A DNA stretch of 64,000 nt from a virus (IMGVR_UViG_3300033076_001012:1-64000), one strand, 5' to 3'; positions 9,732 to 24,006 are shown, counted from the first letter of the stretch. Notes: a model not told the origin generated them from the letters alone. A program made the numbers and translations.

Positions 9732-11051
9732 TTAAATTTTTAGATCATTTATAGATTCAATCCAATGTACATTATCTTTAACATCTTTATCTCTTGATTT
9801 TACCCATTTTTCCTCTTGTGTATTCTTAACATATATATTAATATATAATGCTATCTTACCTTCAACAAGTCTTAAAGAACGTCCTCTACGTTGTATAGAA
9901 GGTCTTAGTTTACCTGTTCCACTATGACATATACCTAAACTACATTCCGGTACATCCATACCTTCATTTAAAGCTTTAACAGCACTTATTATACGTTTAG
10001 AACCTGAAGAAAACTCAGATAAAGAGGTTTTGCGATCATTTTGAGACATTTTAGAATGAAAAACAATACATTCATTACCAACAGCTTGAGCTATTTCATT
10101 AGCTGTTTTTACACTTTCACTAAATACTATACTTCTCCTCTCAGGAAACTTATCTAATATTTGCTTAACTAATGATATTTTATTAAAAGCATTGTAGCAC
10201 AGGTTTTTACGTTCACGCATACATCTCCAAAACTTAGAGGAATATTCAATTTTATCTCTAAATTGGGAAAGTTCCAAATCAGTTAAAGATCTAGTATATT
10301 CAGAACTAATATTTATACCGTTAATTTCACTTCTATAAATAACTCTATTTTCTGGAGTAAAAACACATATATTTTCACCACTTTTTCCTATATTCTTGAA
10401 TCTCAAATATTTAGAAGCATTTGTAAAAGCAACATATTGTCCACCTAACTGTCTTTCATAAAAAGAATAATTACTATTTATTTGATTATAGGACTTTTGT
10501 TCCTCCGATGTAAATTCTACAGGAATATTATAGATTATAAAAGGACTTATTAAACCAAGTTCTAAAGCTCTTTGTGTATTTGTTGTATGAATTATAGGAG
10601 CAACACTTTGCATAAATTGTAAAATAATTTTATCATCTGGAGGAGTAGCTGTTAAACATAATATTCTATCATAAGTATTATTTTTCAAAAAATCACTATA
10701 TTTTGCTCCCTGTATTGACCAATGTGATTCATCAATTACAACAGTATTAAAATGTTTACCAACCCATTTATAAACAGTTTGTATACATTCTATTTGTACT
10801 TTTTCTAATTCTCTAACATATCCCCAAGTAACAAATTGATTTTTCCACTCATTATCTCTAAGATTTTCTGTAGGAACTATTACCAACGAAGTTTCATTAT
10901 TATTTCTTCTGATAAATTCTCCAGCAGCAATAACACCAACTCTTGTTTTACCACAAGAAGTAGCTGCTATCCATGAACCTTTATAATTATTTTCTTTCCA
11001 TTTACTAAGAACAAGATTCTGTTCCTTAGTCTTGTTCTCATGTATTTTCAT
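9732..11051 (-). CDS. superfamily 2 DNA helicase (DExH)
   Basis: ATSCGKT, IDESH, LTAT, EGMDVP, QRRGRSLR. Confidence 0.9.
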   Translation of the reverse strand: MKIHENKTKEQNLVLSKWKENNYKGSWIAATSCGKTRVGVIAAGEFIRRNNNETSLVIVPTENLRDNEWKNQFVTWGYVRELEKVQIECIQTVYKWVGKHFNTVVIDESHWSIQGAKYSDFLKNNTYDRILCLTATPPDDKIILQFMQSVAPIIHTTNTQRALELGLISPFIIYNIPVEFTSEEQKSYNQINSNYSFYERQLGGQYVAFTNASKYLRFKNIGKSGENICVFTPENRVIYRSEINGINISSEYTRSLTDLELSQFRDKIEYSSKFWRCMRERKNLCYNAFNKISLVKQILDKFPERRSIVFSESVKTANEIAQAVGNECIVFHSKMSQNDRKTSLSEFSSGSKRIISAVKALNEGMDVPECSLGICHSGTGKLRPSIQRRGRSLRLVEGKIALYINIYVKNTQEEKWVKSRDKDVKDNVHWIESINDLKI

Positions 11052-11065
11052 AAAAATTAAGTTTA

Positions 11066-11141
11066 AATTAACGATCTACAAATAACCTTAGTAAAACTAC
11101 TTAAATATACACTGTTTTATTAAGGTTATTTGTTGTTAGCA
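11066..11141 (-). repeat. attC-like site A3 (76 bp)
   Basis: Minus strand: TGCTAAC aacaa ATAACCTTAATAAAAC ... GTTTTACTAAGGTTAT ttgtagatc GTTAATT. Confidence 0.75.
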
Positions 11142-11147
11142 ACTGTT

Positions 11148-11645
11148 TTATAATCCTGAATTTTTACTCATTATTCTTGAGTAAAAATCTGCATACATTT
11201 TAAAAAATTTATTTAATTCTGCTTTATTTTCCGTATAAAAATCTATTCTCCAGTCGTCTTCTGTAATTCCTTTTTCATTTACCACGGGTCGTGGTAAATA
11301 GGTTGAACTTGTTTTAATTTTATCAAGCTGATTTACAAGTTTTTGCCATTTATTTCTTGTAAATATGCCAGAAAAACCCGAACTTATTGTTAATAAATCA
11401 ACCTCATCAATAAGTACTTGAAACTTATCAATATTCCACTCTTCTGTCAAAAGATTAGAATTTTTTGTTATTAGCTCTTTGGGAGATACAGTAATAAATT
11501 CTCGAAGTACGGATTTGTTATGTTTGGCAATTGCCCATATCCATTCCAACATTGTCTTTGGTATTGTTAATAGTGCCACTACAATAGATAACACTAATGC
11601 AAAATTATTTGCAAATGTTGTCCATGTAATGCAGATTATTTTCAT
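11148..11645 (-). CDS. cassette membrane protein, paralogue of 14686-15153
   Basis: N-terminal hydrophobic helix; IAKHNKSVLREFITVSPKELITK aligns with INEHNKRLFTDYIKIHPADLLTK. Confidence 0.75.
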   Translation of the reverse strand: MKIICITWTTFANNFALVLSIVVALLTIPKTMLEWIWAIAKHNKSVLREFITVSPKELITKNSNLLTEEWNIDKFQVLIDEVDLLTISSGFSGIFTRNKWQKLVNQLDKIKTSSTYLPRPVVNEKGITEDDWRIDFYTENKAELNKFFKMYADFYSRIMSKNSGL

Positions 11646-11947
11646 AAAACGATTTCTAAAAGAATAAGAATGTATGCAAGATACCTCCTTATTTTTTACG
11701 TTCCTCCTATTAGTTACTCATACATAAATTACTAGTAATTATTCGATTTTCTAAAAATTTCTCTACATTTATTTTAACTATTGTTTTTAGATAATAGCCG
11801 ATTAAAAAGTAGTTAACTTAAATTTTTTAGAGAAATGATTTGGATAATCATGTTTGGATTAATCACTCTTGTTAGAGAACTGACAAATTTGGTTAAAGCT
11901 ATTAAAGAGTAGCTGTGTAGTAGATAAATTTGAGTTTATTTACTTTG

Positions 11948-11976
11948 TCCCCTGTCCACAAGTCAGGGGATTTTTT
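11948..11976 (+). terminator. terminator-like hairpin
   Basis: tcccctg/cagggga stem followed by a T run. Confidence 0.5.
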
Positions 11977-11979
11977 ATT

Positions 11980-11987
11980 TATATTTG
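11980..11987 (+). promoter_or_regulatory. Bacteroidota sigma-A -7 element (TAnnTTTG)
   Basis: TATATTTG upstream of the structured leader and the plus-strand gene at 12216. Confidence 0.6.
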
Positions 11988-12030
11988 TTATAGTATTCAT
12001 ATAGCGTTAGCTATTCTCTTGTGGTTGAAA

Positions 12031-12200
12031 GCTTGGAAATTTTCAAACAGTAAACAAGAAATAGTCCTAATGCTCACGTCAAAGCGTGGGTTTAGGCTTT
12101 TCTATTTACTGTGGGTCTTCCAAGCACCTCAATCTATAGATTAGCATTAAGGCCCACGCTGATTTTTTATAAACTATCTACATAGGGTCTTGGTAGATAC
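12031..12200 (+). ncRNA. candidate structured RNA / 5' leader with possible pseudoknot
   Basis: Nested stems gcttggaa/ttccaagc and acagtaaa/tttactgt, plus crossing pairs taatgct/agcatta and agcgtggg/cccacgct. Confidence 0.4.
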
Positions 12201-12215
12201 AAAAAACCAAACTCT

Positions 12216-12812
12216 ATGAAAAATATTTTCTTTTTATCCTTATTTCTTTATGTTTCATTTATTATTAAATCTCAAGATTTAATAACATTAAAAACAGGTG
12301 AAGAAATTGTTTGTAAAGTAACAGAAATGGGAGTAGATGAAATAAAATATAAAAAACCAGAAAGAGATATAGTATATATAATTAATAAATCAAATGTATT
12401 TATGATTAAATATGAAAACGGAACTAAAGATGTTTTCTCAGATAAAAAAACAGAAACAGTTATTTCATCTACTAACTCAATAGATATGTTTGCTAAAGGT
12501 GAAGCAGATGCTGAAAGATATTACCTTGCGAAAAATACTGGAGCTGTTGGAACATTTATAACTACTATAGCTATGGGTGGATTACCATTTGGTCTTATTC
12601 CTGCAATAGCTTGTTCATCAACCACACCTAAAATGCAGAATTTATATATACCCGATAATACATTATTAAATAATAATCTCTATATGACCGGATATAAAAG
12701 CACCGCACATTCAATAAAAAAACGTAAAATATGGGGTGCTTTTGCTGCTGGAATAGCAGTAAATTTTGCAACTGGTATTATAGCATACAGTATTATAAAA
12801 AATAAAAGATAA
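12216..12812 (+). CDS. Bacteroidota-type exported/membrane protein (moron-like)
   Basis: Signal peptide; SQDLITLKTGEEIVCKV...IKYENG..DVF domain; C-terminal hydrophobic helices; opposite strand to all neighbours. Confidence 0.75.
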   Translation: MKNIFFLSLFLYVSFIIKSQDLITLKTGEEIVCKVTEMGVDEIKYKKPERDIVYIINKSNVFMIKYENGTKDVFSDKKTETVISSTNSIDMFAKGEADAERYYLAKNTGAVGTFITTIAMGGLPFGLIPAIACSSTTPKMQNLYIPDNTLLNNNLYMTGYKSTAHSIKKRKIWGAFAAGIAVNFATGIIAYSIIKNKR

Positions 12813-13072
12813 CTGAATTACTCTATAATCTCTGTTCTATCTACCTTTAATAAATGTTTAATATTTTAATAAAGAAGGGAGATTTTCTTTTAAAATTAGA
12901 TGTGAAGAATTTTTGGATTGAACTTGCAAAAGAAATCCTAAAATTTAGCCACACAAAATCTCAAGTGAAGTTGAAGTAGTAGTCTACTTATTAAACAAAG
13001 TACAAGTATCCTGTGTTATTAAATTAGCACAAGTTTTTTTATTTAATCTCCATATTTTCTACAAGAAGTCAG

Positions 13073-13090
13073 CATAAAATAGTTGCTAAT
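13073..13090 (-). repeat. bare cassette core plus leader (ATTAGCAACTATTTTATG), attC lost
   Basis: 17/18 identical to the leaders at 13578-13595 and 13991-14008. Confidence 0.65.
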
Positions 13091-13094
13091 GATC

Positions 13095-13580
13095 TTATTT
13101 TCTCAACCATATAGACTTGTCCATACTCCAGTGAATAAAATAATACATTATTTTAAATATTTTACTTGTTAATTTTATTCTTTTCTCATTATCATAATAA
13201 AAATCCATAAAAGGATCGTCCATTGGTATTATAATAACATTACCATCACATTGTCTTAATGTTTTATTTAAGTCTAATGAATGAATCCCTTTTAAATTTT
13301 TTATTAAATAATATATTACTATTTGCATAGGTAAACTAACAAGTCCAATAAAAAACCTGTTATTAACTGTCATTTTATATGTCTTTATTAATGCTTGTAT
13401 TAATAGTTGTTTGTCAACATCTAATTCAGAATAAATTTCAGGTCTATAGATACCTATGCAATCTCTATATTTGATTGCATTTATATACATAAGTCTTAAA
13501 AATAATGTTGAGAATAAACCAATAGTCCATTCCCAATGTTTTATAAATAAAAAGTCTATTAATGAAGTTGAACTATTCAT
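13095..13580 (-). CDS. cassette membrane protein, paralogue of 14099-14581
   Basis: Two hydrophobic segments; IKYRDCIGIYRPEIY, FIGLVSLPMQI and YYFIHWS align with 14099-14581. Confidence 0.75.
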   Translation of the reverse strand: MNSSTSLIDFLFIKHWEWTIGLFSTLFLRLMYINAIKYRDCIGIYRPEIYSELDVDKQLLIQALIKTYKMTVNNRFFIGLVSLPMQIVIYYLIKNLKGIHSLDLNKTLRQCDGNVIIIPMDDPFMDFYYDNEKRIKLTSKIFKIMYYFIHWSMDKSIWLRK

Positions 13581-13595
13581 AAAATAGTTGCTAAC
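13578..13595 (-). repeat. bare cassette core plus leader (GTTAGCAACTATTTTATG), attC lost
   Basis: Identical to the 18-nt leader at 13991-14008, with no palindrome upstream. Confidence 0.7.
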
Positions 13596-13630
13596 TAGTT
13601 ATTAATGAATAAAAGCATAAATACATTTAT

Positions 13631-13993
13631 TCAAAATATCTTACTTTTATTTTTTATAAAATTATCAAGTTTAATTTTAACATCTTTAATTTTTAAAATT
13701 TCATCATTAGAATATCTTTCAGGATTTGACCATGCTTGTGCTTTATTTAAAAGCAAATACCCTAATTCATTATCTGGATAATAACTGTATATAATAGATC
13801 CAGCATCTGCCCATAATTTAGCAATGTTTATATTTGAAGTAATTACTTCTCCATTATTAGCCAATACTCTTTCAGTCTCAATAATAGCTTTAAATATGGA
13901 ATCACAAATAACTCTTCTTTTTTCAGAATTCATCATTTTATCTTTAATTAATAATATTATAAGATTAAGTATAGTCTCTCTAAACTCTTTCAT
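13631..13993 (-). CDS. cassette hypothetical protein (start reassigned to MKEFRET)
   Basis: The ORF-track extension to 14071 runs through the attC site; ATG at 13993 follows the cassette leader. Confidence 0.7.
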   Translation of the reverse strand: MKEFRETILNLIILLIKDKMMNSEKRRVICDSIFKAIIETERVLANNGEVITSNINIAKLWADAGSIIYSYYPDNELGYLLLNKAQAWSNPERYSNDEILKIKDVKIKLDNFIKNKSKIF

Positions 13994-14001
13994 AAAATAG
14001 T

Positions 14002-14093
14002 TGCTAACGGTTTGCAGATAAAATAAGTTGCCACACAAGTTAACAATAATGAGTATTGTCCAATGTGGCAATTTATTTTATGTGCTGTTATAG
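14002..14093 (-). repeat. attC-like site A2 (92 bp)
   Basis: Minus strand: CTATAAC agcac ATAAAATAAATTGCCACA ... TGTGGCAACTTATTTTAT ctgcaaacc GTTAGCA. Confidence 0.85.
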
Positions 14094-14098
14094 CCAGT

Positions 14099-14581
14099 TT
14101 ATGTCCTCCGCTTATCAAATATATGATATATAGATCCTTTACTTGTCCAATGTATTAACCTATAAAATAAAGGGAAAAAGAAATTGAATATTTTAAATTC
14201 TTTTTCATATTTATAATAATAGTCCTCACTTGACATTTGAGAGTCTATCAAAGTTTCCCCTATGCTTTTTCTGTAATAAAGTTTGCTTAAACTAAACCAC
14301 ATTATTATACTTATGGGTAAAGTAAATATACCAATAGGAAAAGCTAAGTGTCTACCCATATCAATAAAACCATTTATTACTTTAATATAATTTTCTCTGT
14401 CCCAATTTATTTGTCTACTGTCTGTAAGAGTGTCTATATGGTAAATGTCCTCATACCAAACACCTATGTATTTTTTATACTTTAAGTAATTCCAAAACAT
14501 ATTTGTTGTTAAAATTGTAAATAATGTAGTTATAACCCAAATAGGATATTTGTCATAAAAGTCTATGATAAAGTCTTTCAT
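14099..14581 (-). CDS. cassette membrane protein
   Basis: Bounded by GTTATAGCCA and TGGCTATAAC; two transmembrane-like segments. Confidence 0.8.
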   Translation of the reverse strand: MKDFIIDFYDKYPIWVITTLFTILTTNMFWNYLKYKKYIGVWYEDIYHIDTLTDSRQINWDRENYIKVINGFIDMGRHLAFPIGIFTLPISIIMWFSLSKLYYRKSIGETLIDSQMSSEDYYYKYEKEFKIFNFFFPLFYRLIHWTSKGSIYHIFDKRRT

Positions 14582-14588
14582 AAATTGG

Positions 14589-14680
14589 CTATAACGGTTT
14601 GCCGACTTGCCCAGTGCCGCATAACATAGTGTTAAAATTTATCTGTCAATATGCGGCATTGGGTAAGACCGCTGTTAGCA
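14589..14680 (-). repeat. attC-like site A1 (92 bp)
   Basis: Minus strand: TGCTAAC agcgg TCTTACCCAATGCCGCATA ... TATGCGGCACTGGGCAAGT cggcaaacc GTTATAG. Confidence 0.85.
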
Positions 14681-14685
14681 GTTGT

Positions 14686-15153
14686 TTATGTCCACCACCA
14701 AAATACACCATCTTTCCACTTAACAAAGTCCCACAAAGCATTACTTAATCTGTCTATTTGCTTAATGTCCCCTGTTTCATCTTTAAAACTAGTCTTTGGA
14801 TCTGTTGTCCACCAATTTGAATCTAAATTATCTCTTATTTCCTTGACTTCTTGCCCAATTTTTAGTAATTTACTATAATAGTAATTAGCAAAGTAAATTC
14901 CTCTTGCTTTAATTTCTTGTTGTCTACAATACTCAAGATTGTCAAGAAGCTCAACTACTTTTTCAAAATTATATTTGTCGTCAGAGAAATTTATAAAAAG
15001 TCCACGCTTTGTTAAGAGGTCTGCTGGATGTATTTTTATATAGTCCGTAAAAAGTCTTTTGTTATGTTCATTTATTGTCATTAAAATTTTAATTATAGGA
15101 ACAGTCCCAATAAGTCCTGATATTATTACCCAATGTTTTATGATAAATTGCAT
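14686..15153 (-). CDS. cassette membrane protein
   Basis: Bounded by GTTAGCAGTT and AACTGCTAAC; N-terminal transmembrane helix. Confidence 0.8.
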   Translation of the reverse strand: MQFIIKHWVIISGLIGTVPIIKILMTINEHNKRLFTDYIKIHPADLLTKRGLFINFSDDKYNFEKVVELLDNLEYCRQQEIKARGIYFANYYYSKLLKIGQEVKEIRDNLDSNWWTTDPKTSFKDETGDIKQIDRLSNALWDFVKWKDGVFWWWT

Positions 15154-15171
15154 GATAAATAACTGCTAACT

Positions 15172-15208
15172 AATATATAAGTAAAGTTTTTAATTTTACT
15201 TATATATT
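15172..15208. terminator. 14-bp perfect AT hairpin between the polB stop and the first cassette core
   Basis: aatatataagtaaa/tttacttatatatt with a 9-nt loop. Confidence 0.5.
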
Positions 15209-15209
15209 G

Positions 15210-16004
15210 TTAAAATAAAGACATTTGTCCTACTTTCTCTATATCATTTATCCACTTTCTTGCCTCAGATATATAATAAGAGTAATCTATATCATATTCA
15301 TTAAAATCATTAACATAAAAATACTTATTGAAGTAAGTAACTTTCCAATCTTTTCTATTTTTTTCAGGGGCTTCAACATGGGAAATTGTTCCATCCTCGT
15401 ATATTTTATATAGCCAATATCCTTTATTAGATATGTAATATCTAACTGTCTTAGATAATTTTTCTTTAAACAATTGTCCATTTTTAATAGAATGTAATTC
15501 ATATCTTGATGCACCCTTTACTCCTGACTTTTTAGCTCTAACACCTGCACAAAAATCATAAATATTTTGATGATTTTTAATAGTATCTTCTATATTTTTG
15601 TTGTTAACAAAATATTCATATACTGCCAATGGTATTATAGCATGAGATTTATTTTTATGTAAAGGTATATCCTTAAATTCAAATTTACCTTTAGTTTTTG
15701 TTTTACCATTTGTATATATTGCAATATAGTTATTGCAATCTGCTATTATCATTTTCTGATAATCTACAAACTCCATTTCTATTTTATACAATTTTTCATA
15801 TTTCTTACATATAGAATAATATAATTCTTCATACTTTTTAGGTATAAGAACTTCACCACCATCAGTATTTAACATTATAAGTTTACTATCAGGTATGGAT
15901 TCTAATATATCTTCAAAAACCATTGATAATAATAGCTGACCATTTATACATATAGCAAGTGTAACTTTTCTATCTTTTAAAAAACTATATTTATCATTAC
16001 TTAA
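15210..16004 (-). CDS. polB: family B DNA polymerase, exon 2
   Basis: Resumes LSNDKYSFLKDRKVTLAICINGQLLLSMVFE after the intron; contains motif C LNTDGG and DCNNY; 795 nt in frame. Confidence 0.9.
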   Translation of the reverse strand, partial: LSNDKYSFLKDRKVTLAICINGQLLLSMVFEDILESIPDSKLIMLNTDGGEVLIPKKYEELYYSICKKYEKLYKIEMEFVDYQKMIIADCNNYIAIYTNGKTKTKGKFEFKDIPLHKNKSHAIIPLAVYEYFVNNKNIEDTIKNHQNIYDFCAGVRAKKSGVKGASRYELHSIKNGQLFKEKLSKTVRYYISNKGYWLYKIYEDGTISHVEAPEKNRKDWKVTYFNKYFYVNDFNEYDIDYSYYISEARKWINDIEKVGQMSLF

Positions 16005-17141
16005 CGTTTTGTTATCTATAAGGCTTTTTATCCCTATATTCTTTAAATTTTATTCTCTAAAGTCCAGCATATATTTTCATCCATAAACGGATGGTGGATA
16101 CTCGTGATTGGATTATATTTATTCACCAACTATGCGTTACACTACTTTTAAACCTTTCGCAATTTTAAAAGTTAGCACGGTATTAGCATTTCAGCCTTCA
16201 CCGTTTTTACCCACTAATAATCTTAAACATTACTATTTAAGACGGCTCAAAATATTTAAAAACTAAACCTTTATACGGTTTACTATTTCTACAAGATTGA
16301 AAAATATTAGGAAGTTTTAATTCTTTTCCAGATTTACTTCTAAATAAAGAAGTATTGTTCCATATTTCAGAGTTTTCTGTTTTTGATAATCTAACTATTT
16401 CTTGTGCATCTGAATACACTCCCAAAAGTATGTTGTTATGATATACAGAAATTTTTTTCCTAAGTTCTTTAAAGCGAGATCTTCTTTTCAAAAGACCTGT
16501 TTCTGACATAATTCTATCAGCATTTTTTAATTTTTCAATATGTTCATTACTCAATTTCTTACCTTTATTCCAAGGAACAGATTTCATATAATGATTTACT
16601 ATATTTATATACTTTTTTGGTATATCTTGATATAATATATCATTATTTTTTAATCTATAATAATAAGAAATTGCAGTGTTTATAGTTTCTTTAAATGTTT
16701 TAGATCTTCTGCTAAAAACTTCTTTATTTGTAATAATTGGAGGTCTAAAGGAATATATATTTATATTATAACCTCTTTTGTTAAAAGGTTTATAAATATC
16801 AAAAGCTCTTTGTTCCCATTTTAAAACATTATCACATACTAACATTATTCTAAAATAAAATTTATCTGCTCCATATTTATTATACGCATTTTGTAAATAT
16901 TTATTTTCGTGAGAATTCTTTTTTAAACCATTAATGTGAAACATTAATCTATTTTTAAAAGATTTGTTAGTAGATCCTATATAAACTTTTTTAGTAATGG
17001 TATTTACTATTGCATAAACACCTTTTTTGTTTAGTTTTTCTAAATCTCTAATGTAAATTGTCATATTAAATATATTAAGATTGTACTCAATACATCTAAG
17101 ATAAGTATTTTTGCTTAGAAATCCAAATATTTTTTTAGTTA
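16005..17141 (-). ncRNA. group I self-splicing intron in polB
   Basis: The 5' exon ends in U (TATGGT) and the intron ends in G (aacaaaacG). Core elements AAACGGTGAAGGC...GCTAATACCGTG and P7-like GCATA/TATGC lie downstream of the endonuclease ORF. Removal restores KILLNSSYG-LSND. Confidence 0.85.
16237..17064 (-). CDS. GIY-YIG homing endonuclease (intron-encoded)
   Basis: GVYAIVNTITKKVYIGST, R...H, and a NUMOD-like PWNKGKKLS..HIEKL segment. Confidence 0.9.
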   Translation of the reverse strand: MTIYIRDLEKLNKKGVYAIVNTITKKVYIGSTNKSFKNRLMFHINGLKKNSHENKYLQNAYNKYGADKFYFRIMLVCDNVLKWEQRAFDIYKPFNKRGYNINIYSFRPPIITNKEVFSRRSKTFKETINTAISYYYRLKNNDILYQDIPKKYINIVNHYMKSVPWNKGKKLSNEHIEKLKNADRIMSETGLLKRRSRFKELRKKISVYHNNILLGVYSDAQEIVRLSKTENSEIWNNTSLFRSKSGKELKLPNIFQSCRNSKPYKGLVFKYFEPS

Positions 17142-18239
17142 ACCATAACTACTATTAAGCAAAATTTTTAAAATATAATTTCTTGGATCAGATTTTGGTA
17201 TAGACTTTCTTTCATTAAAGAATCCTTCATATAAATTTAAAAAAACATCCTTTGGTAAATGTTCTGCACAAATATTATTTCTTATAGCAAGATTTGGATA
17301 CCATGATACAAAATCTAAAGATTTTATAATATATTTTTCATCACTTTCAATAATTGCATTATTTGGTGAAGCATGTACACCGCCCAAACCATAAACTATA
17401 TCTATACCTGAATGTTTTATTATAAATTCAGGTTTACTTGTTTCAGTTATTATCAAATCTTCATAAGATTTTTTGAGAAGTTGAAATTTTTGAGTTTTAA
17501 AATTAACATATGGAAATATTATATCTTTTACACTAACAATATCTCTTTTAGTACCCATACTTCTTAGATCAGATTCACTTATACCCATAGCTCTACTAAG
17601 ATATTTACTAAATAATCTTTTCGCTAAATCAGGTTCTGTACAATTCAATAAGTTTATACCTTCTCTATCTGTTAATTTCTTTCTAAGATCTATTTCATGG
17701 TAATACTTTTGATAAAGACTTTTTGTAGCTAAAACATCATTTAAATTGTAAGATAAAACCATTTCTTCCCAATTATCACCTTCTCCCTGAGATGGTATAT
17801 CCTCAATATTTGGAAAATCCGTTTGAAATTCACACCATTTTAATCCAACTCTTTTAGCCTTAGTACTTAAACTCAAAGCTCTAAATAAGTCTAAATGTGG
17901 TATTTTAAGTTTCCATTCAGGAACATCTGATTTTCTATCCTCTGAAGTTATAATTTGAGCGTAATTTCTTATTTCTTCAACCGTACATTTAGGATAACGA
18001 AACATATATTCTAATATTTGAGAATCAAAGTGTAAACAATTATAACCTATTAGTCCAGAAACTTCATTTTCTAAAAATGTAAACATTTCTAATCTTTCAT
18101 CTTTTAATGAACTAATCACAAATATCTTTTTATCATCACTATCTCTATCTACAAAAGTAGCTGTAAAAATATTCAATGTTTCTAAATCATATATCCAAAC
18201 CTTTTTATACATTTTTTTTAATTTAGTTATATTTTTCAT
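17142..18239 (-). CDS. polB: family B DNA polymerase, exon 1 (3'-5' exonuclease plus palm motifs A and B)
   Basis: YDLE, GYNCLHFD, YNLNDV, YGLGGVH, DFVSWYPN, KILLNSSYG. Confidence 0.9.
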
Positions 18240-18286
18240 TAAGTAAACATACGCTTATCACCTGTTATGTACAATAAAATGCGCCA

Positions 18287-18544
18287 TCAGGTTGAGTGCT
18301 TCTTAAATGTAATTTTTCCATTTTGGCAATTCAAATCTGCATTACAATCGGGGCATTTTGCATCAAAATTTGGTGCTATAACAAGTTGAAGCGTTACTGC
18401 TGTAAATGATATTACCATTCCAATTAGCAATAATGCGAAATGCGTGTTGTTGTGCCAAGTATCTGTAATGTTAAACCAAATCAATATTTGTCCTAAAATT
18501 GCCAAAATGTAAAATCGGTATCCCCAAAGTTTTTTCATATTCAT
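18287..18544 (-). CDS. cassette membrane protein with C-terminal CxxC...C
   Basis: Two transmembrane-like segments plus CPDC; flanked by a long inverted repeat GTTATGTA..AAAATGCGCCA. Confidence 0.65.
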   Translation of the reverse strand: MNMKKLWGYRFYILAILGQILIWFNITDTWHNNTHFALLLIGMVISFTAVTLQLVIAPNFDAKCPDCNADLNCQNGKITFKKHST

Positions 18545-18573
18545 TAAGTTTTAGTTTGGCGCATTTTACTGAT

Positions 18574-18659
18574 ACATAACAGCACCCTTGCGCAATTAGG
18601 TTGCTGTTAATATTTTTATGGATGCAACCTAACTATCGCAAGGCCGCAACCCGTTATGC
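18574..18659 (+). repeat. attC-like site B1 (86 bp)
   Basis: ACATAAC agcac CCTTGCG..TTAGGTTGC ... GCAACCTAA..CGCAAGG ccgcaaccc GTTATGC. Confidence 0.85.
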
Positions 18660-18674
18660 GGCATTAAAACGACC

Positions 18675-19000
18675 GCATAACAGCAAATAGGATCAATAAA
18701 TTAATTTTATTCGTAGTTCATTTTGTAATTCAATCAAAGTATCTACTGTAAAATTATGTCCTCCACTTAACCACTTAGTAATAACAGAGGGTTGTTGTTT
18801 CATTTTTAATGCTAATTCTTTTTTACCTATCTTATTTTTTGCCATTCCTTCACTAATCTTCTTAGCAATAGTCATTTTTGCTAAAGTTTTTTCATAAGCA
18901 ACTTTATCTTTTATTTTAAAAAAATCGTCTAATATTTTGCTCTCGTGTTTTTTCATTTGTATAAAATTAATTTACTAAGCCTATTTGCAAACCGTTAGCG
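18675..19000 (+). repeat. attC-like site B2 (326 bp) with a gene in its loop
   Basis: GCATAAC agcaa ATAGG..TAAATTAATTTTA ... TAAAATTAATTTA..CCTAT ttgcaaacc GTTAGCG. Confidence 0.8.
18693..18956 (-). CDS. XRE/HigA-like HTH protein (orphan antitoxin-like) inside the B2 loop
   Basis: KKELALKMKQQPSVITKWLSGGHNFTVDTLIEL is an XRE-type HTH pattern. Confidence 0.8.
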   Translation of the reverse strand: MKKHESKILDDFFKIKDKVAYEKTLAKMTIAKKISEGMAKNKIGKKELALKMKQQPSVITKWLSGGHNFTVDTLIELQNELRIKLIY

Positions 19001-19125
19001 GTCATTGCCTAAAATTTCTGAATATTGTATGTTATTGCCATTATTATCGGATGAAGCCAAATACTGCTTACCTGCTAATTTAAAAGGTTGTCCTAAATAA
19101 ATTTCAGGCAACGCCACTTCGTTAC

Positions 19126-19189
19126 CGCTAACAGCACCTAAAACGCAACTCCGCTACGCTCCGCAGCGTTTAGCTGCAAAACGTTAAAT
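19126..19189 (+). repeat. attC-like site B3 (64 bp)
   Basis: CGCTAAC agcac CTAAAACGC ... GCGTTTAG ctgcaaaac GTTAAAT, with one extra A in the left arm. Confidence 0.85.
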
Positions 19190-19197
19190 GTAATGCC

Positions 19198-19515
19198 TTA
19201 GCCCTCGCACGCTTTTATCATATTTTCAACTTCGTCAAACATTTCATAAGGCAAATGAGTTGGTCTATCGTCTTCTTCTGATATTTTATAGAGTGCGTGT
19301 TGATGAACTTTTTTTAATAACACTAAAAGTTCATTTTTTATTTTACACTCAAATTGGTATTTTTCAAAATAATCAGCTTGAGCTTGTTTCTCATTATAAA
19401 TAACGGTAAATGTTGAGCCATCTTTATCAACAATACATCCTATTTGGTTAATTTCGTGTATCGAATTATTTGTAATCCAGTTTAAAAAATCACGAGTATT
19501 AAATTGTTTTGTCAT
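19198..19515 (-). CDS. cassette hypothetical protein (likely start MTKQF)
   Basis: The ORF-track extension to 19587 runs through the attC B4 arm. Confidence 0.65.
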   Translation of the reverse strand: MTKQFNTRDFLNWITNNSIHEINQIGCIVDKDGSTFTVIYNEKQAQADYFEKYQFECKIKNELLVLLKKVHQHALYKISEEDDRPTHLPYEMFDEVENMIKACEG

Positions 19516-19556
19516 ATTAGTTTTTTTTAGTTTTAAAATGCCACCAAAGGCACTAC

Positions 19557-19634
19557 ATTTAACACGTAATTGGCGCAAGCCTTTCACGTTGGCTACCTGC
19601 TAACGGCCTGCCGCCAATCACGAGGCCGTTATGC
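19557..19634 (+). repeat. attC-like site B4 (78 bp)
   Basis: ATTTAAC acgta ATTGGCG ... CGCCAAT cacgaggcc GTTATGC. Confidence 0.85.
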
Positions 19635-20045
19635 TCCATTGCCTCGCTTAAAATACATTACTAAATCAGTTTGTATTACTTCGAGGTACTTTGCATCCTG
19701 TTCACTATTCCCTTCACTTGTATATGTCATTATGCAATTAAGAATATCTTTCAATTCGCTCGGCAACGAGAGCATAACAGGGGCTTTAATAAATAAACTA
19801 AAATTATCCCATGCCATAAATTGATAGTCATATTCAGTATAATTTATTCCTATTGAACTAATGTATGATAGTATATCAGTTTCAGTTGCATTGGCGAAAA
19901 TATATCTATGCGTTACTTTGCCTCCATCAATATTAAATTTAATGTGCGTAGATGCTTCGTGTTCTGTTGGTTCGCCATGCAACTGACAATGTGTTGTATA
20001 TGCCTTACATTGCTTGTATGCTATTGTTAATCTTCCTTTTTTCAT
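19629..20045 (-). CDS. hypothetical protein starting in the B5 loop and ending in the cassette body
   Basis: Reads through the attC arm as FSLFIKAPVMLSLP and stops at the TAA inside the distal GTTA core. Confidence 0.65.
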   Translation of the reverse strand: MKKGRLTIAYKQCKAYTTHCQLHGEPTEHEASTHIKFNIDGGKVTHRYIFANATETDILSYISSIGINYTEYDYQFMAWDNFSLFIKAPVMLSLPSELKDILNCIMTYTSEGNSEQDAKYLEVIQTDLVMYFKRGNGA

Positions 20046-20090
20046 AATGAATAATTTTAGTTTACTTCTTAAAGCCCCATCCCGTTATAA
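19772..20090 (+). repeat. attC-like site B5 (319 bp) with a gene in its loop
   Basis: GCATAAC aGGGCTTTAA..TAAACTAAAATTAT ... ATAATTTTAGTTTA..TTAAAGCCC catccc GTTATAA. Confidence 0.8.
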
Positions 20091-20118
20091 GTAACCCTAT
20101 CGGGTCGCTATCGCTTAC

Positions 20119-20391
20119 TTATAACAGCAAATAGGCTCAAGTTTTTAAACTATTAAGCCGTTTCTGCTCCTCAATTCTAAACATTTCGTAAAGCTCCTCA
20201 ATAGTCTTATACTCACAAGTAATATTTGACCAATATTTGCCTACGTGTTTCGGGTGCGTTTTAAGTCGCTTTACCCATTCGTTTTTTTGTAGCCACTCCG
20301 CAAAGTTTACCGCTACCATTTTAACTGCTTCTAATATCATTTCCATTTCGTTAAAGTTTAAAAACCTAAGCCTATTTGCGTAACGTTAGCG
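20119..20391 (+). repeat. attC-like site B6 (273 bp) with a gene in its loop
   Basis: TTATAAC agcaa ATAGGCT..GTTTTTAAACT ... AGTTTAAAAAC..AGCCTAT ttgcgtaac GTTAGCG. Confidence 0.8.
20137..20346 (-). CDS. small hypothetical phage protein inside the B6 loop
   Basis: VNFAEWLQKNEW...YKTIEELYEMF motif; lies wholly between the attC arms. Confidence 0.7.
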   Translation of the reverse strand: MEMILEAVKMVAVNFAEWLQKNEWVKRLKTHPKHVGKYWSNITCEYKTIEELYEMFRIEEQKRLNSLKT

Positions 20392-20397
20392 GCAACC

Positions 20398-20643
20398 CTA
20401 AAAAGACTGCCACACAGTTTCAGCATCTGACCAAAAGCCAAAATCAAAATCGGTAATGTCTTGGTCTTTTTGAAAGACAAACATTTTAAACGTTCCATTT
20501 TTTGACTTAATGATTTGCTTTTGAAAGCTGTAAAACTCAACAGTAAGGCACTCTTGAAATGGTGCTGAACTTGCGTCTACAAAAACTCTGTCGCCATTAG
20601 TGCTTACTCTTAATCTCTGTTCGCTTGGAATGTGTATGTTCAT
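20398..20643 (-). CDS. cassette hypothetical protein
   Basis: Bounded by GTTAGCGGC and GCCGCTAAC. Confidence 0.65.
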   Translation of the reverse strand: MNIHIPSEQRLRVSTNGDRVFVDASSAPFQECLTVEFYSFQKQIIKSKNGTFKMFVFQKDQDITDFDFGFWSDAETVWQSF

Positions 20644-20671
20644 TTTATTTTGATTTGTGAAGAAGGGCAGC

Positions 20672-20803
20672 CGCTAACAAGGTATTAGCTATATGGCGGC
20701 TAACGTGCTTCGGTTAAACATTTGTTCTTTTATCAACTGCGGTTCTTCGTATCGGCTGTGTTGCTGTAATTCCGCCACATCGCTAATACCCGAACCGTTA
20801 TAG
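20672..20803 (+). repeat. attC-like site B7 (132 bp)
   Basis: CGCTAAC aaggt ATTAGC.ATATGGCGG ... CCGCCACAT.GCTAAT acccgaacc GTTATAG. Confidence 0.85.
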
Positions 20804-20810
20804 CCAATAG

Positions 20811-21206
20811 CTACCATTCTCGGTCAACACCGACTTGTATGAAGTCAACACTTTCCGAATAACAACCATTTGATTCACCAAACCAACGAATATCTACATA
20901 GCCTTTTATCGTTGCTATTTTATAAAATGTCCACGTACAAGAACCCCAATCATTTGCTTCTTTTGTTCGCTTAATGTCTTCTTCCGAAGTTGGTTCATAG
21001 TTTGAAACTTCTTCTGCTTTTAAGATTGGTGTTCCAATCAAGTCGTTTAAGTCACCGTTAATATCTTCAATCGAAACACTTTCACAGCAATTTTGTCCGT
21101 GATACATTTTGTATTGTGTTCCATCATCAACGATAAAAATTAATTCATCGCCATTGTTTTTGATTTCGGTAAGTGTTTTACCTACTAAGTCTTTAAATTC
21201 TGCCAT
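20811..21206 (-). CDS. conserved phage protein (DUF7448-like) in a cassette
   Basis: MYH.Q.CCESV.IEDI.GDL..LIG.PIL.AEE...[25 protein letters not shown]; family name from recollection. Confidence 0.7.
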
Positions 21207-21253
21207 TGTATTTGTTTTTAAAATTAAGTTTCTACTAATTAATCCGCTACTGG

Positions 21254-21355
21254 CTATAACAGCACCTTAGCGTCAGTTTTTGGCTATTTAGTTTATAGGT
21301 AACTTGAACATTTCGGTAAGCCAAAAACCAAACGCCAAGCTGCAAAACGTTAGCA
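21254..21355 (+). repeat. attC-like site B8 (102 bp)
   Basis: CTATAAC agcac CTTAGCG..GTTTTTGGCT ... AGCCAAAAAC..CGCCAAG ctgcaaaac GTTAGCA. Confidence 0.85.
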
Positions 21356-21359
21356 CCAA

Positions 21360-21653
21360 TTAACCAACGCTCGGTTTAGGCGCTATTTTTAGCTTGTTCT
21401 TTTTCATAACGTGCTGTCTTATTTTGGTAAACAATTTTTGAACGGCTTTTTCTCTTGCCTTATCATTTATCAAGCCAGCAAATTGTAAGTAAGTAATGCT
21501 TTCTCTTAATTTTTCAAAATGCTTTACTTCTTCTGCATCAAATTTAAAACCCTGTTCTTTTAATTGTTTCGCAATCGGTGGCACTAATGCTCCAAAGCCG
21601 ATTCTAAATTGTTTGTTTTCTTCCATTTTTTTATATTTAGTTATTAATTCCAA
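21360..21653 (-). CDS. cassette hypothetical protein
   Basis: Bounded by GTTAGCACCA and TGGTGCTAAC; the true start may be MEENKQF. Confidence 0.7.
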   Translation of the reverse strand: MELITKYKKMEENKQFRIGFGALVPPIAKQLKEQGFKFDAEEVKHFEKLRESITYLQFAGLINDKAREKAVQKLFTKIRQHVMKKNKLKIAPKPSVG

Positions 21654-21667
21654 CGCACTTTAACTGG

Positions 21668-21740
21668 TGCTAACAGCACATACACGCTATTTTTCCACCC
21701 ACTTCCAACGCTCACAGCGTGTATCTACGATACTTTTGAA
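21668..21740 (+). repeat. terminal attC-like site B9 (distal core degenerate)
   Basis: TGCTAAC agcac ATACACGCT ... AGCGTGTAT ctacgatac followed by TTTTGAA instead of GTT. Confidence 0.7.
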
Positions 21741-21827
21741 AAATCTAACCATTGGTTTAATAATTTATCTATCTGCATATTTTAAAGTTTTTTTCAAATT
21801 CCAAAACAGATGATTTGTCATCTTTTT

Positions 21828-22046
21828 TCATTTATTGTCTAAAGTTAAATAATAATTAATACTTGCATTAACGGCAATATTAAACAAATGTACCCTTATA
21901 TCATTATCTGGCTTATTTATACCAACAATATCTATTTCTCTCATATCATAAATATATCTAACTATCAAAGAACTTGCTTGCTCAAATGTCAAAGTTTGTT
22001 TTTGAGATAATTTAGATATATCAATAGCATCTTCTCTAGTTATCAT
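21828..22046 (-). CDS. hypothetical protein
   Basis: Co-oriented small early gene. Confidence 0.6.
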   Translation of the reverse strand: MITREDAIDISKLSQKQTLTFEQASSLIVRYIYDMREIDIVGINKPDNDIRVHLFNIAVNASINYYLTLDNK

Positions 22047-22059
22047 TTTAAGATTCTTT

Positions 22060-22359
22060 TTATTTATTCTGAGATTTAGATAATTTGATAAAGTTATTCA
22101 TTTCACCAAATATTTTTTTTACATAAGATCCTATTTTAATCTTTTTATCTGTATATTTAATATTACCATTTTCATCTTTCATAACTTGACCATTAACAAT
22201 CTCAGGTAATTGTACAAGTTCTTTAGGAGAATAAACCAAATCTCCTTTTTTCTTTATTTTTAATAATTTACCAATTATCTTTCTTCTTTCTTTATATTCA
22301 TCAAATGACTCATTTTCAAGTCTATGAGATGAAAAATCTACTACTTTTGTTATACTCAT
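22060..22359 (-). CDS. hypothetical protein
   Basis: RLENESFDEYKERRK motif; co-oriented. Confidence 0.65.
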   Translation of the reverse strand: MSITKVVDFSSHRLENESFDEYKERRKIIGKLLKIKKKGDLVYSPKELVQLPEIVNGQVMKDENGNIKYTDKKIKIGSYVKKIFGEMNNFIKLSKSQNK

Positions 22360-22367
22360 AATTTTAT

Positions 22368-22613
22368 TTATTTTTTTAGATCTTTTAAAAATAATTCATA
22401 TAATTCTTCTGCTGTTACTCTTTTCTTTACTTCTTTAGAATACTCTTTTCTTTCAATTATAGACCATTCTCTTCCTATATTAGGAGCTAAGGGTTGTGCG
22501 TTATTAGCTATCCATAGAGCAAATAATTTAGCTCTCCTATGTCCTAATATAATAGTTAACCTATAAACTAAGAACCATAATATAGTAGATATTATTAATA
22601 CAAAGATTGTCAT
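22368..22613 (-). CDS. hypothetical protein with N-terminal TM helix
   Basis: Hydrophobic N-terminus; VTAEELYELFL C-terminus. Confidence 0.6.
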   Translation of the reverse strand: MTIFVLIISTILWFLVYRLTIILGHRRAKLFALWIANNAQPLAPNIGREWSIIERKEYSKEVKKRVTAEELYELFLKDLKK

Positions 22614-22630
22614 GTTGTTTTAGTTTTAAG

Positions 22631-22873
22631 TTAATATCCTAATATCATTTCAGCTATCTCACATAGCCATTTTTCTAATTGCTTATATTCTACAGAAGAT
22701 TCATTATAATTACACTGCAATCCTCCAAAATATTTATACTGATCTTTAAATTCCTCTTTAACTAAACTGTTAGCAACAGTATAACTAAAGTCAAAATCTT
22801 TACTTTTAATAAATACAGTAACATCATCTAGCTTAGTTATTGTATATCCTTTGAGTATTTCTGCTTTTCTCAT
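22631..22873 (-). CDS. hypothetical protein
   Basis: Co-oriented small early gene. Confidence 0.6.
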   Translation of the reverse strand: MRKAEILKGYTITKLDDVTVFIKSKDFDFSYTVANSLVKEEFKDQYKYFGGLQCNYNESSVEYKQLEKWLCEIAEMILGY

Positions 22874-23348
22874 TTAGTTTTAAGTTTAATTTCTTCTTGA
22901 GCATATTTATAACCAGCTATAAAAGCATCTATAACGCTTGATGTAACTTTATTATCCAACTTATCTAATTCATATTGTAAAGCAGCTTTAATATGCTTTG
23001 GTATTCTTTTAGCTCTTTCTTTTATTGAGTTCTTTTTTATTTTTTTCATTTTATCAAAGTTTTTAACAGTTAGTAGTGCCTTATTTATGCTCGGACTTAT
23101 TTTGGCTCACTCATTAAAGAAGCAGAGTACCTACTAACTGCCTATCAAAACACTCGTAATGACCATCAACGGTTTCCCTCCAGTCCACTAAGTTCAATAG
23201 GCTTAGTGTTTACAAGTTTCCTGCTTTTAGACAGGTTGATAAGGTTTTTAATGATATGGTATTACATTATTTATAATACACCAAGTGTAATACTCAATTA
23301 ATTGTTCTTTTGATTTTTCCATAGTTTTTAGTTTTAGAATTATTAGTA

Positions 23349-23750
23349 TTAAATCAGTTTAGTTAATGTGTATTCAATTGCTGCTTCATAGGCTTCTGTT
23401 GGAGAACCATATTTAGGTTTGTTATTACCATCATAATTTCTTTCATCGGCTAAATCTTTTATAAATGTTACACTAAAATGGAATTTAGAAATACCATTAG
23501 CAATTGTGTTACAAGTTACACTAATCCAAATCCCATGTTTCTCATACAACCACATTACTACTTCCGCAATGGTTGGTGCAGGATAATGTGAAGTATTTTG
23601 AAAACCACTTTCTTCATCCATTTCCCACATTCTATGATGTGTTAATTTGAATGTATCTTTAAATACTTGAACATAATATTTATTACTCTGTTTACCAAAT
23701 CCTTTTTCTTTTAGCGACTTTGCTACTTCAAATTTTACTGGCGTATTCAT
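23349..23750 (-). CDS. conserved hypothetical Bacteroidota-phage protein
   Basis: FEVAKSLKEKGF...APTIAEVVMWL.EKHGIWI...PTEAYEAAI pattern. Confidence 0.7.
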   Translation of the reverse strand: MNTPVKFEVAKSLKEKGFGKQSNKYYVQVFKDTFKLTHHRMWEMDEESGFQNTSHYPAPTIAEVVMWLYEKHGIWISVTCNTIANGISKFHFSVTFIKDLADERNYDGNNKPKYGSPTEAYEAAIEYTLTKLI

Positions 23751-23751
23751 A

Positions 23752-24006
23752 TTATTTAATATTAGTTAATGGATAACAATTTTTCAACGCGTCAACTACA
23801 TCTTCATAAGATACAGTATCAGTAGAAGAACCAGAAGGCGCAGATTCTATACATTCTTTAATTGCTGCTTTAACATGAAGTTTAGCAAATTCAATCATAT
23901 CTTTAATTACATTATCGGTAAGCAAACCATCATATAATTGTCCATCATCAGACATATTGTAATCCTTATTCTTTAAAAATTCTTCTGCTGTTGGTATTTT
24001 ATTCAT
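23752..24006 (-). CDS. hypothetical protein
   Basis: IPTAEEFL...MIEFAKLHV pattern. Confidence 0.65.
   Translation of the reverse strand: MNKIPTAEEFLKNKDYNMSDDGQLYDGLLTDNVIKDMIEFAKLHVKAAIKECIESAPSGSSTDTVSYEDVVDALKNCYPLTNIK

Follow-up and report, generated by a model that had tools for sequence, protein, structure and literature searches.

Does a phage genome hold gene cassettes of the kind that integrons capture and, if so, what moves them? The question is raised by an 89,027-bp IMG/VR virus record, IMGVR_UViG_3300033076_001012, estimated to be 94% complete; its first 64 kb (1-64000), here called the window, are the stretch of DNA to which all positions below refer. An original prediction, made from the sequence alone, had placed an integron-like array of gene cassettes with nine attC-like sites at 18264-21740, within a crAss-like phage genome. 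The analysis reported here makes it highly probable that this region is one of two arrays of mobile cassettes lacking a recombinase, integron-like in organization and yet distinct from integrons. The element is larger than first described: the opposite strand carries another array, of three sites, at 11069-15216, and the two arrays are oriented away from each other on either side of the polB block (15210-18239). Each opens with a bare GTTA core (18264 and 15170, respectively) and is closed by a full site.

Nine Cassettes with Offset Complementary Ends

Reading of both strands, together with an exhaustive search for GTT...AAC ends, showed that nine consecutive, non-overlapping bodies tile 18264-21674, each followed by an imperfect palindrome. 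In the following, the half of a site that ends in TAAC is called R'' and the half that begins with GTTA is called R'. The two ends of each body are perfectly complementary to one another, over 8, 9, 9, 10, 9, 11, 9, 10 and 10 nt for bodies 1 to 9, and over 10 nt in each cassette of the second array (15170/14674, 14596/14087 and 14008/11135); complementarity of this crossover type is present in all 12 window cassettes. R'' and R' within one window site have in common the 4-nt core only, and the complementarity is therefore offset by one cassette. This is what the prediction had claimed, namely that each body starts with a GTT core matching its own distal AAC core over 8-11 nt and not the core in which its attC now ends, and it held in nine bodies out of nine.

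The shuffle test proposed with the prediction, which asked whether such ends could arise by chance, also came out in its favor. In 1000 dinucleotide-preserving shuffles of 18200-21800, GTTA..TAAC pairs of at least 8 nt numbered 1.04 +/- 1.14 (maximum 7) versus 10 observed, and pairs of at least 9 nt numbered 0.29 (maximum 3) versus 8. Across the wider family of sites, R'' of a site is complementary over at least 8 nt to R' of the preceding one in 68 of 101 neighboring pairs (mode 9-10, never more than 10); R'' and R' of the same site mostly share 4-5 nt, and just 4% of random R''/R' pairings reach 8 nt. The R boxes of the family extend to 12 positions, R'' being AC-W-G-N5-TAAC and R' being GTTA-N5-(C/A)-A-T, with a conserved mismatch at position 11, because of which perfect complementarity never exceeds 10 nt in family pairs.

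Polarity is set by the bare core at the beginning and the full site at the end of the arrays, as seen in array 1, so that a cassette reads TTA..., body, ...TAAC, hairpin, G, an order that it shares with integron cassettes. In array 1 every open reading frame (ORF) runs antisense to the site strand, which puts each site upstream of its gene; the longest ORF is likewise antisense in 59 of 68 family cassette bodies and sense in 5, array 2 being a sense exception. The opposite polarity, with array 1 genes sense to the site, was considered and rejected: it would give a truncated first site and a bare R'' at the end, and the homology between site copies reaches the R'' side and stops at GTTA.

Sites were detected with a covariance model built on them, in place of a simple TAAC..GTTA stem detector, which misses most of them owing to a conserved C.C mismatch. 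The features of array 1 (18264-21744) are listed below with the perfectly complementary length of the body ends, the model score in bits and, where given, the z value of the fold against shuffles.

18264..18271, plus strand: array start, lone R'-type core GTTATGTA; not preceded by a palindrome; 25 nt from the polB start codon (18239, minus strand), on its upstream side
18264..18580, plus strand: cassette 1 body; ends GTTATGTA / TACATAAC, 8 nt; ORF 18287-18544 (minus, 85 aa, no family)
18573..18656, plus strand: site 1 (R'' ..TAAC, stem-loop, aaccc, GTTA); model match 18569-18664, 53.5 bits; z -3.55
18653..18681, plus strand: cassette 2 mini-body, a 29-nt hairpin; ends GTTATGCGG / CCGCATAAC, 9 nt
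18673..18997, plus strand: long-loop site 2; arms TAAC-a-GCAAATAGG and CCTATTTGC-aaacc-GTTA; loop ORF 18693-18956 (minus, 87 aa, weak HTH_3)
18994..19132, plus strand: cassette 3 body, 139 nt; ends GTTAGCGGT / ACCGCTAAC, 9 nt
19124..19186, plus strand: site 3; model match 19121-19194, 51 bits; weak single-sequence fold, z -0.4
19183..19563, plus strand: cassette 4 body; ends GTTAAATGTA / TACATTTAAC, 10 nt; ORF 19198-19515 (minus, 105 aa, no family)
19554..19631, plus strand: site 4, divergent spacers; model match 19552-19639, 38.3 bits; z -1.97
19628..19778, plus strand: cassette 5 body; ends GTTATGCTC / GAGCATAAC, 9 nt; codes only the C-terminal part of ORF 19629-20045
19770..20087, plus strand: long-loop site 5; 10-bp stem GGGGCTTTAA / TTAAAGCCCC around the N-terminal part of ORF 19629-20045
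20084..20125, plus strand: cassette 6 mini-body, a 42-nt hairpin; ends GTTATAAGTAA / TTACTTATAAC, 11 nt
20115..20388, plus strand: long-loop site 6; arms GCAAATAGGC / GCCTATTTGC; loop ORF 20137-20346 (minus, 69 aa)
20385..20678, plus strand: cassette 7 body; ends GTTAGCGGC / GCCGCTAAC, 9 nt; ORF 20398-20643 (minus, 81 aa)
20670..20800, plus strand: site 7, 131 nt; model match 20667-20808, 42.6 bits
20797..21260, plus strand: cassette 8 body; ends GTTATAGCCA / TGGCTATAAC, 10 nt; ORF 20811-21206 (minus, 131 aa; DUF7448, phrog_2650)
21251..21352, plus strand: site 8; model match 21249-21360, 64 bits
21349..21674, plus strand: cassette 9 body; ends GTTAGCACCA / TGGTGCTAAC, 10 nt; ORF 21360-21626 (minus, 88 aa; phrog_25508)
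21665..21744, plus strand: site 9, terminal, decayed; model match 21663-21744, 24.4 bits, outside the training set; z -3.04

All nine bodies thus lie where they had been predicted, while the description of nine palindromes bounded by TAAC and GTTA needs amendment for four sites. Three of them (18673-18997, 19770-20087 and 20115-20388) are long-loop sites, with cores 274-325 nt apart and coding sequence in the loops, paired with near-empty cassette bodies of 29, 151 and 42 nt; at site 5, the ORF 19629-20045 (minus strand, 138 aa) runs through the R''/stem. The covariance model misses these three sites. The same arrangement recurs in L038, one of the loci fetched for comparison (numbers with L), and a 190-nt loop is found in L040. 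The fourth is site 9, which keeps its 9-bp stem but has mutations in the 3' arm and no GTTA core. The cassette 3 body (18994..19132) contains no ATG-initiated ORF, but only a 40-aa GTG frame (minus) and short TTG frames.

Structure of the Sites

On the plus strand, all sites are built alike: ...NNNNNTAAC is followed by one base, usually A, by a stem usually opening with GCA(C) and by a variable loop; the 3' half comprises the returning stem, which ends in (T)GC, five bases, usually AAAMC, and then GTTANNNNN.... The spacers are asymmetric, 1 nt in one arm and 5 nt in the other; the R stem is 9-10 bp long, with conserved TAAC/GTTA cores, and the boxes agree only partly with RYYYAAC/GTTRRRY. Six of the ten window sites that were folded are clearly better than their shuffles (z -3.0 to -5.1). 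Family-wide covariation is stronger structural evidence than the folding of single sites: in the inner helix 95.6% of cells are paired, and double-sided changes number 425 versus 131 in shuffles, with 18-41% of cells paired when the partner is slid, all in an alignment that is model-fitted. A search of 10500-22500 against Rfam at E 0.01 returned no family for the sites and no group I intron in polB.

A Second Array between polB and the Helicase

Array 2 (11069-15216, minus strand) places three sites between the polB stop codon and the start of an SF2 helicase gene. Its genes have a phage-like, low guanine-plus-cytosine (GC) content and are sense to the site strand. Its features, and the block between the two arrays, are as follows.

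15161..15216, minus strand: array start, AT-rich hairpin immediately past the polB stop, then lone core GTTAGCAGTT (15170-15161); z -5.08
14674..15170, minus strand: cassette 1'; ends GTTAGCAGTT / AACTGCTAAC, 10 nt; ORF 14686-15153 (minus, 155 aa), sense to the site strand
14593..14683, minus strand: site 1'; model match 14584-14685, 53 bits; z -4.68
14087..14596, minus strand: cassette 2'; ends GTTATAGCCA / TGGCTATAAC, 10 nt; ORF 14099-14581 (minus, 160 aa)
14005..14096, minus strand: site 2'; model match 13997-14098, 66.8 bits; z -4.02
11135..14008, minus strand: composite cassette 3', 2.9 kb; ends GTTAGCAACT / AGTTGCTAAC, 10 nt
11069..11144, minus strand: site 3'; model match 11061-11146, 34 bits, outside the training set; z -4.49
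15210..18239, minus strand: backbone block between the arrays; polB N-terminal part 17139-18239, GIY-YIG endonuclease ORF 16237-17064, polB C-terminal part 15210-15923

Site 3' ends 18 nt upstream of the helicase start codon (11051). The composite cassette 3' contains the ORFs 13631-13993, 13095-13580 and 11148-11645 (minus) and 12216-12812 (plus), with internal relic leaders, GTTAGCAACTATTTTATG at 13595 and ATTAGCAACTATTTTATG at 13090; ORF 13095-13580 is a paralogue of the cassette-2' ORF 14099-14581 (25% identity, E 5e-12). The leader GTTAGCAACTATTTTATG precedes consecutive ORFs three times, at 14008, 13595 and 13090, the last with G changed to A, and at 13600 TAAC and GTTA are only 2 nt apart, like a collapsed site. 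Searched over the whole genome, the covariance model gave nine matches only which, with the three long-loop sites, make twelve.

The possibility that a recombinase is encoded between the arrays (15210-18239) was rejected, the block consisting of polB and the GIY-YIG endonuclease. Between the two polB reading frames (15924-17138), a 313-nt non-coding stretch after the GIY-YIG ORF (about 16007-16244) has 67-75% identity to segments of unrelated phages, where they sit inside terminase, capsid, tail and endonuclease genes; this distribution suggests that the stretch within the polB region may be a mobile intron-like element, the Rfam search for a group I intron being negative.

Breakpoints, Reshuffling and Relatives

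Homology with other loci breaks at GTTA, as expected from the prediction that breakpoints would fall at the cores. The clearest case of reshuffling is given by the viral records G031 and G010 (L031 1-4155 versus L248 7111-13574), in which the recombinase regions are 98.8% identical and 100%-identical cassettes are reordered; the block edges are GTTA cores, the attI-like core described below included. In the window, long-loop site 2 is 89% identical to L038 over 238 nt, and its protein is 98% identical over 61 aa. The homology of this HTH cassette starts at the R' core 18653, the preceding sites being unrelated, and its ends are GTTATGCGG/CCGCATAAC here versus GTTATAGCA/TGCTATAAC in L038, a compensatory R'/R'' change, which speaks against the idea that the complementarity stems from a conserved motif of gene ends or gene starts and not from pairing. 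Copies of site 8 that are 93-97% identical occur in L011, L012, L013, L039 and L080: similarity starts a few bases upstream of R'' and identity ends exactly at GTTA 21352, beyond which the sequence is unrelated in four other loci. Site 3 is 96.6% identical to a site in L090, and sites 70-79% similar to site 7 are found in L066/L067, L108 and L192.

These observations bear on the alternative that the palindromes are ordinary regulatory hairpins (terminators or RNA-stability elements) and that the genes are shuffled by homologous recombination between repeats, as has been proposed for the promoter-stem-loop cassettes in T4-type phages. The hairpins do lie between co-directional small genes of an early or replication module, and several site subfamilies, being at least 90% conserved between unrelated contigs, could support homologous exchange. 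However, exchange inside a repeat would not give complementarity of a cassette with its own end rather than with the neighbor; identity ends exactly at GTTA and not at variable points within the repeat; and R' and R'' of one cassette covary across bodies of 29 nt to 2.9 kb. Moreover, adjacent sites of array 1 belong to different sequence subfamilies and the hairpins are not followed by a T-run, all of which makes this explanation very improbable.

Nineteen loci related in polB were compared, at 28-68% identity (18 of them at 46-68%). The covariance model found no site in 17 of them and a single site in another; the remaining one has three, which lie upstream of polB and share the relative polarity of array 1; no homologue of a cassette ORF was present in any of the 19. 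In the relatives the two polB parts are about 100 nt apart and the helicase comes next: the distance from the polB C-terminal part to the helicase is 8-21 nt in L258-L260 versus 4.1 kb here, where it is occupied by array 2, and the hairpin that opens array 2 is missing in relatives where polB abuts the helicase. The arrays are therefore accessory elements, inserted where genes of the replication module meet. When 16001-24000 was compared at the nucleotide level with 50,697 phage records, no close relative was detected, and the matches were short ones only, to the DUF7448 cassette gene and to the mobile segment 16007-16244.

Insertion of another kind, by hairpin-bounded transposable units (miniature inverted-repeat or repetitive extragenic palindrome-like, or of the IS200/IS605 kind) that entered independently between genes, would explain structured palindromes with conserved ends present in many copies and many genomes. 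Against it, neither an HUH/Y1 nor any other transposase was noted next to the arrays, the flanking sequences are inverted (TAAC..GTTA) and not direct target duplications, gene and site move together between contexts and not the palindrome alone, and the arrays, strictly co-oriented, terminate in a bare core close to the recombinase; of the alternatives considered, this one appears to have almost no chance of being right.

The Site Family and Its Recombinase

An exact pattern taken from two window sites was used to scan for the family, and it matched at least 118 contigs of IMG/VR as well as 103 contigs from genomes, the latter coming nearly all from Bacteroidota: Flavobacteriales, Saprospiraceae, Sphingobacteriaceae and Crocinitomicaceae, including isolates such as Flavobacterium covae and Algoriphagus limi. 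Application of the covariance model to phage and Bacteroidota loci, which had been suggested as a check, revealed co-oriented arrays of up to a dozen sites in many of the pattern-bearing contigs.

An Xer-like tyrosine recombinase of 277 aa (ORFs of 267-301 aa) is encoded in 6 of 50 site-bearing viral records; each of the six has its closest site 0.2-1 kb away from the 5' end of the recombinase gene, on the opposite strand. One of them, G010, is a complete 76-kb phage with terminal repeats, whose 12 sites end about 200 nt before the recombinase gene, with a DnaB-like helicase next; its capsid match to crAss-like phages is weak (E 5e-6). The clearly crAss-like site-bearing records G018, G025, G090 and G091 are fragments, with no tyrosine recombinase in their sequence; a complete platform with recombinase in an unambiguous crAss-like genome is not among the records examined. 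About 100 nt upstream of the recombinase start there is an attI-like sequence, conserved to ...catataataGTTAGCA and diverging after it; across the family, the sequence upstream of the recombinase ATG is conserved to ...ataataGTTAGCA and the first cassettes then differ. In the window, the bare GTTA cores at 18264 and 15170 have no adjoining recombinase gene.

The phage recombinase is matched best by the XerA model, at 198 bits (below the cut-off, 220), and by the solved structures of XerA, an XerC-like protein and XerD. It reaches 164-208 bits with the integron-integrase model TIGR02249 (cut-off 265) and 86-125 bits with NF011946 (cut-off 435); the TIGR02249 alignment is in two pieces, 5-180 and 243-314, and the match to the VchIntIA structure (2a3v) stops at chain residue 175. 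Positions 181-238 of TIGR02249, which are skipped, are the region of the IntI-specific insertion. Because the model aligns in two pieces only, the phage enzyme lacks this insertion.

In Bacteroidota, the integron-integrase model gives a match with an E value of 1e-20 or better in 37 of 39 site-bearing genomes; the strongest of these mostly align in the same two pieces and lie in open frames about 350-400 aa long. The chromosomal homologue of the phage recombinase (L235:1195-2322, the one examined in detail; also L245 and L247) has 375 aa, with about 100 aa added at the N-terminus, and is just above the NF040815 cut-off. In several of these genomes sites lie downstream of the recombinase gene on the same strand, unlike in the phage platforms.

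It could then be asked whether the arrays are a fragment of a canonical integron, i.e., a cluster of attC sites lacking an integrase (CALIN), captured from a host chromosome and moved by a true IntI. The TAAC/GTTA cores, the imperfect palindromes and the offset complementarity are like those of integrons; virulent phages have been reported to carry attC clusters with no integrase, and IntI1 can recombine phage attC sites (PMC9892861); finally, the GC content of array 1, 35-38% versus about 25-27% in the adjacent backbone, is foreign. On the other side, none of the 50 viral records and 39 Bacteroidota genomes, all site-bearing, reaches the curated TIGR02249 cut-off, and the array-linked recombinase lacks the IntI-model positions mentioned above and best matches archaeal XerA and an XerC-like protein. 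The 1-nt/5-nt spacers are not the two similar unpaired spacers of the canonical geometry (known from established work), the genes are predominantly antisense to the site, and integrons are reported to be rare in Bacteroidetes (PMC9024848). Capture of a canonical fragment is, therefore, an unlikely origin, less far-fetched than shuffling at regulatory hairpins.

The Phage and the Cassette Cargo

Large terminase, portal and major head PHROG families match window proteins at E 1e-103 to 1e-151, and the head protein is 34% identical, over 98-99% of the length, to the major head proteins of the crAss-like phages cr4_1, cr115_1 and others; Flavobacterium and Cellulophaga phage records are also among its matches. 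Because of these terminase, portal and head matches and of the 34% identity, naming it a crAss-like phage of Bacteroidota is justified on sequence grounds, formal taxonomy aside, and the predicted assignment agrees with the crAss type of the capsid protein.

Only two cassette genes have a family, DUF7448/phrog_2650 (20811-21206) and a weak HTH_3 (18693-18956); ORF 21360-21626 matches phrog_25508, a family without known function, and array 2 encodes small membrane proteins. The cargo shared with the fetched loci is limited to the HTH gene (L038) and a weak match of the 81-aa ORF of cassette 7 (20398-20643), whose 32% homologue adjoins a site in L093. Just past array 1, at 21745-23100, there are further small co-directional ORFs, which may be older cassettes with decayed sites; a 59% homologue of one of them, ORF 22631-22873, adjoins a site in L112.

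Proposed Mechanism and Significance

In the mechanism that we propose, a circular cassette would carry one structured site, with an R stem of 9-10 bp that pairs ...NNNNNTAAC with GTTANNNNN..., the 1-nt/5-nt spacer and a longer imperfect hairpin. A Xer-type tyrosine recombinase would cut and exchange strands at the GTTA core; the 277-aa enzyme is the presumed catalyst and folded single strands are the likely substrate. Its source would be the gene located beside arrays in other phages, or the N-terminally extended form of Bacteroidota genomes. Once integrated, a cassette would retain both of its own halves, TAAC and TTA..., one at each end, which would account for the offset complementarity. 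Entry would take place at a bare GTTA core, that is, in recombinase-bearing phages, at the attI-like site about 100 nt upstream of the gene and, in the present genome, at the two cores on either side of polB. As to when the cassettes entered this genome, we infer that they were either laid down by a recombinase-bearing ancestor or moved in trans by a co-infecting phage or by the host. Repeated acquisition by the phage, as the prediction had it, may have taken place, en-bloc capture of part of the array being the alternative. The decayed terminal site and the collapsed sites of array 2 suggest partial fossilisation.

Several points weigh against this interpretation. No tyrosine recombinase of any type was found in the 89-kb record, 94% complete, and activity is not assignable in this phage. 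The linkage of sites with a recombinase gene concerns the six records only, most site-bearing contigs being fragments. The single-sequence fold of 4 of the 10 window sites is weak and not better than that of shuffles; the covariance model was trained on sites picked by a sequence pattern, and its alignment leans to that structure. The comparison of cassette content among relatives, also proposed with the prediction, confirmed that polB relatives are mostly without arrays, but those at 46-68% identity in polB are too distant to show nucleotide insertion junctions.

Taken as a whole, the offset complementarity, the homology breaks at GTTA and the absence of arrays from relatives uphold the predicted reading as an integron-like cassette array. 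We consider it rather probable, with less assurance than for the two arrays themselves, that Bacteroidota phages, crAss-like ones included, share an undescribed cassette-exchange system of their own, consisting of a short recombinase of the Xer type that lacks the IntI insertion, of an entry core resembling attI and of attC-like sites with a distinct geometry, upstream of the genes and antisense to them. By means of it, virulent phages would trade small accessory genes with each other, perhaps with hosts; the arrays flanking polB would be its products, and the system may bear on the origin of integrons from Xer.

Integrons are the textbook device for gene capture one cassette at a time, and the common view is that they depend on a special integrase insertion, are rare in Bacteroidota and belong essentially to bacteria. 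In the present case, folded sites, one-core crossover, a bare entry site and reshuffled identical cassettes would follow the same logic in lytic-type Bacteroidota phages, with a plain Xer-like enzyme and a different site geometry. If true, this would explain by a concrete mechanism how small-gene regions become hypervariable in crAss-like and other Bacteroidota phages, regions in which anti-defence and host-takeover genes are likely stored; it would also broaden the enzymology of structure-specific recombination and provide, for the origin of integrons, an intermediate that can be tested. Together with the rule of the GTTA core, the covariance model makes the cassette pool minable from metagenomes.

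Comparison with Known Systems

Integrons, as defined by IntI, attI and attC cassettes, share several features with the family: small co-oriented cassettes, structured and variable palindromes with AAC/GTT cores, 3'-core crossover resulting in offset R''/R' complementarity, a cargo mostly of unknown function and, in other members of the family, a bare-core entry site beside a divergently placed tyrosine recombinase gene. The arrays of this phage, with nine plus three clustered sites, resemble CALINs in having no integrase. There are also differences. The family recombinase is a 277-aa Xer-like protein without the IntI insertion, scoring under the cut-offs of TIGR02249 and NF011946; the R stem comprises 9-10 bp, with conserved TAAC/GTTA and 1-nt/5-nt spacers; the gene is usually antisense to the site, whereas in a canonical cassette the ORF is sense and attC is downstream; and the hosts are Bacteroidota and their phages, among which integrons are reported to be rare (Bacteroidetes, IntegronFinder 2 paper, PMC9024848). 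Judged by the definition of Cury 2016 / IntegronFinder, the system works like an integron in its layout and crossover logic, as the original prediction had it, and falls outside the integrons proper by its integrase, by the orientation of its genes and, probably, by its site geometry.

The closest published observations are those of Qi et al. 2023 (PMC9892861), who described virulent phages, one of them a Polaribacter phage, with clusters of a small number of attC sites and no integrase, and proposed these clusters as a route of cassette traffic. Those clusters and the present arrays have in common the grouping of attC-type sites without integrase in lytic phage genomes; what sets the present case apart is the number of sites (12, in two arrays), their distinct geometry and the different recombinase. 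The Polaribacter phage in question is a flavobacterial phage. In PMC9892861 the clusters were detected using canonical attC models, and IntI1 served to test them; for such clusters no family of phage-specific recombinases is reported, and IntI genes in a few temperate phages only. Examples in that article have 2-3 sites, or 3 sites with 4 ORFs, and crAss, Bacteroid-, Flavobacter- and Cellulophaga are not mentioned. Full-text literature searches found no published description of this cassette family, in agreement with the predicted novelty of the route, which has to be restricted, since attC clusters in virulent phages were already published.

Xer recombination offers another comparison, since among solved structures those of XerA, an XerC-like protein and XerD come nearest to the phage recombinase. 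CTX-phi integrates at dif via XerCD, a case of a Xer enzyme acting on a hairpin of single-stranded phage DNA. However, the CTX-phi and archaeal XerA systems handle, according to established knowledge, whole replicons at one chromosomal dif site and no arrays of gene-sized cassettes. Finally, the PeSL (promoter-stem-loop) elements of T4-type phages are alike in that small accessory genes of phage early regions, which vary from one relative to another, are parted by repeated hairpin intergenic elements. Their shuffling is thought to use homologous recombination between repeats; in the arrays described here, by contrast, breakpoints are fixed at a 4-nt core, the ends of each cassette covary and a site-specific recombinase is linked to the family.

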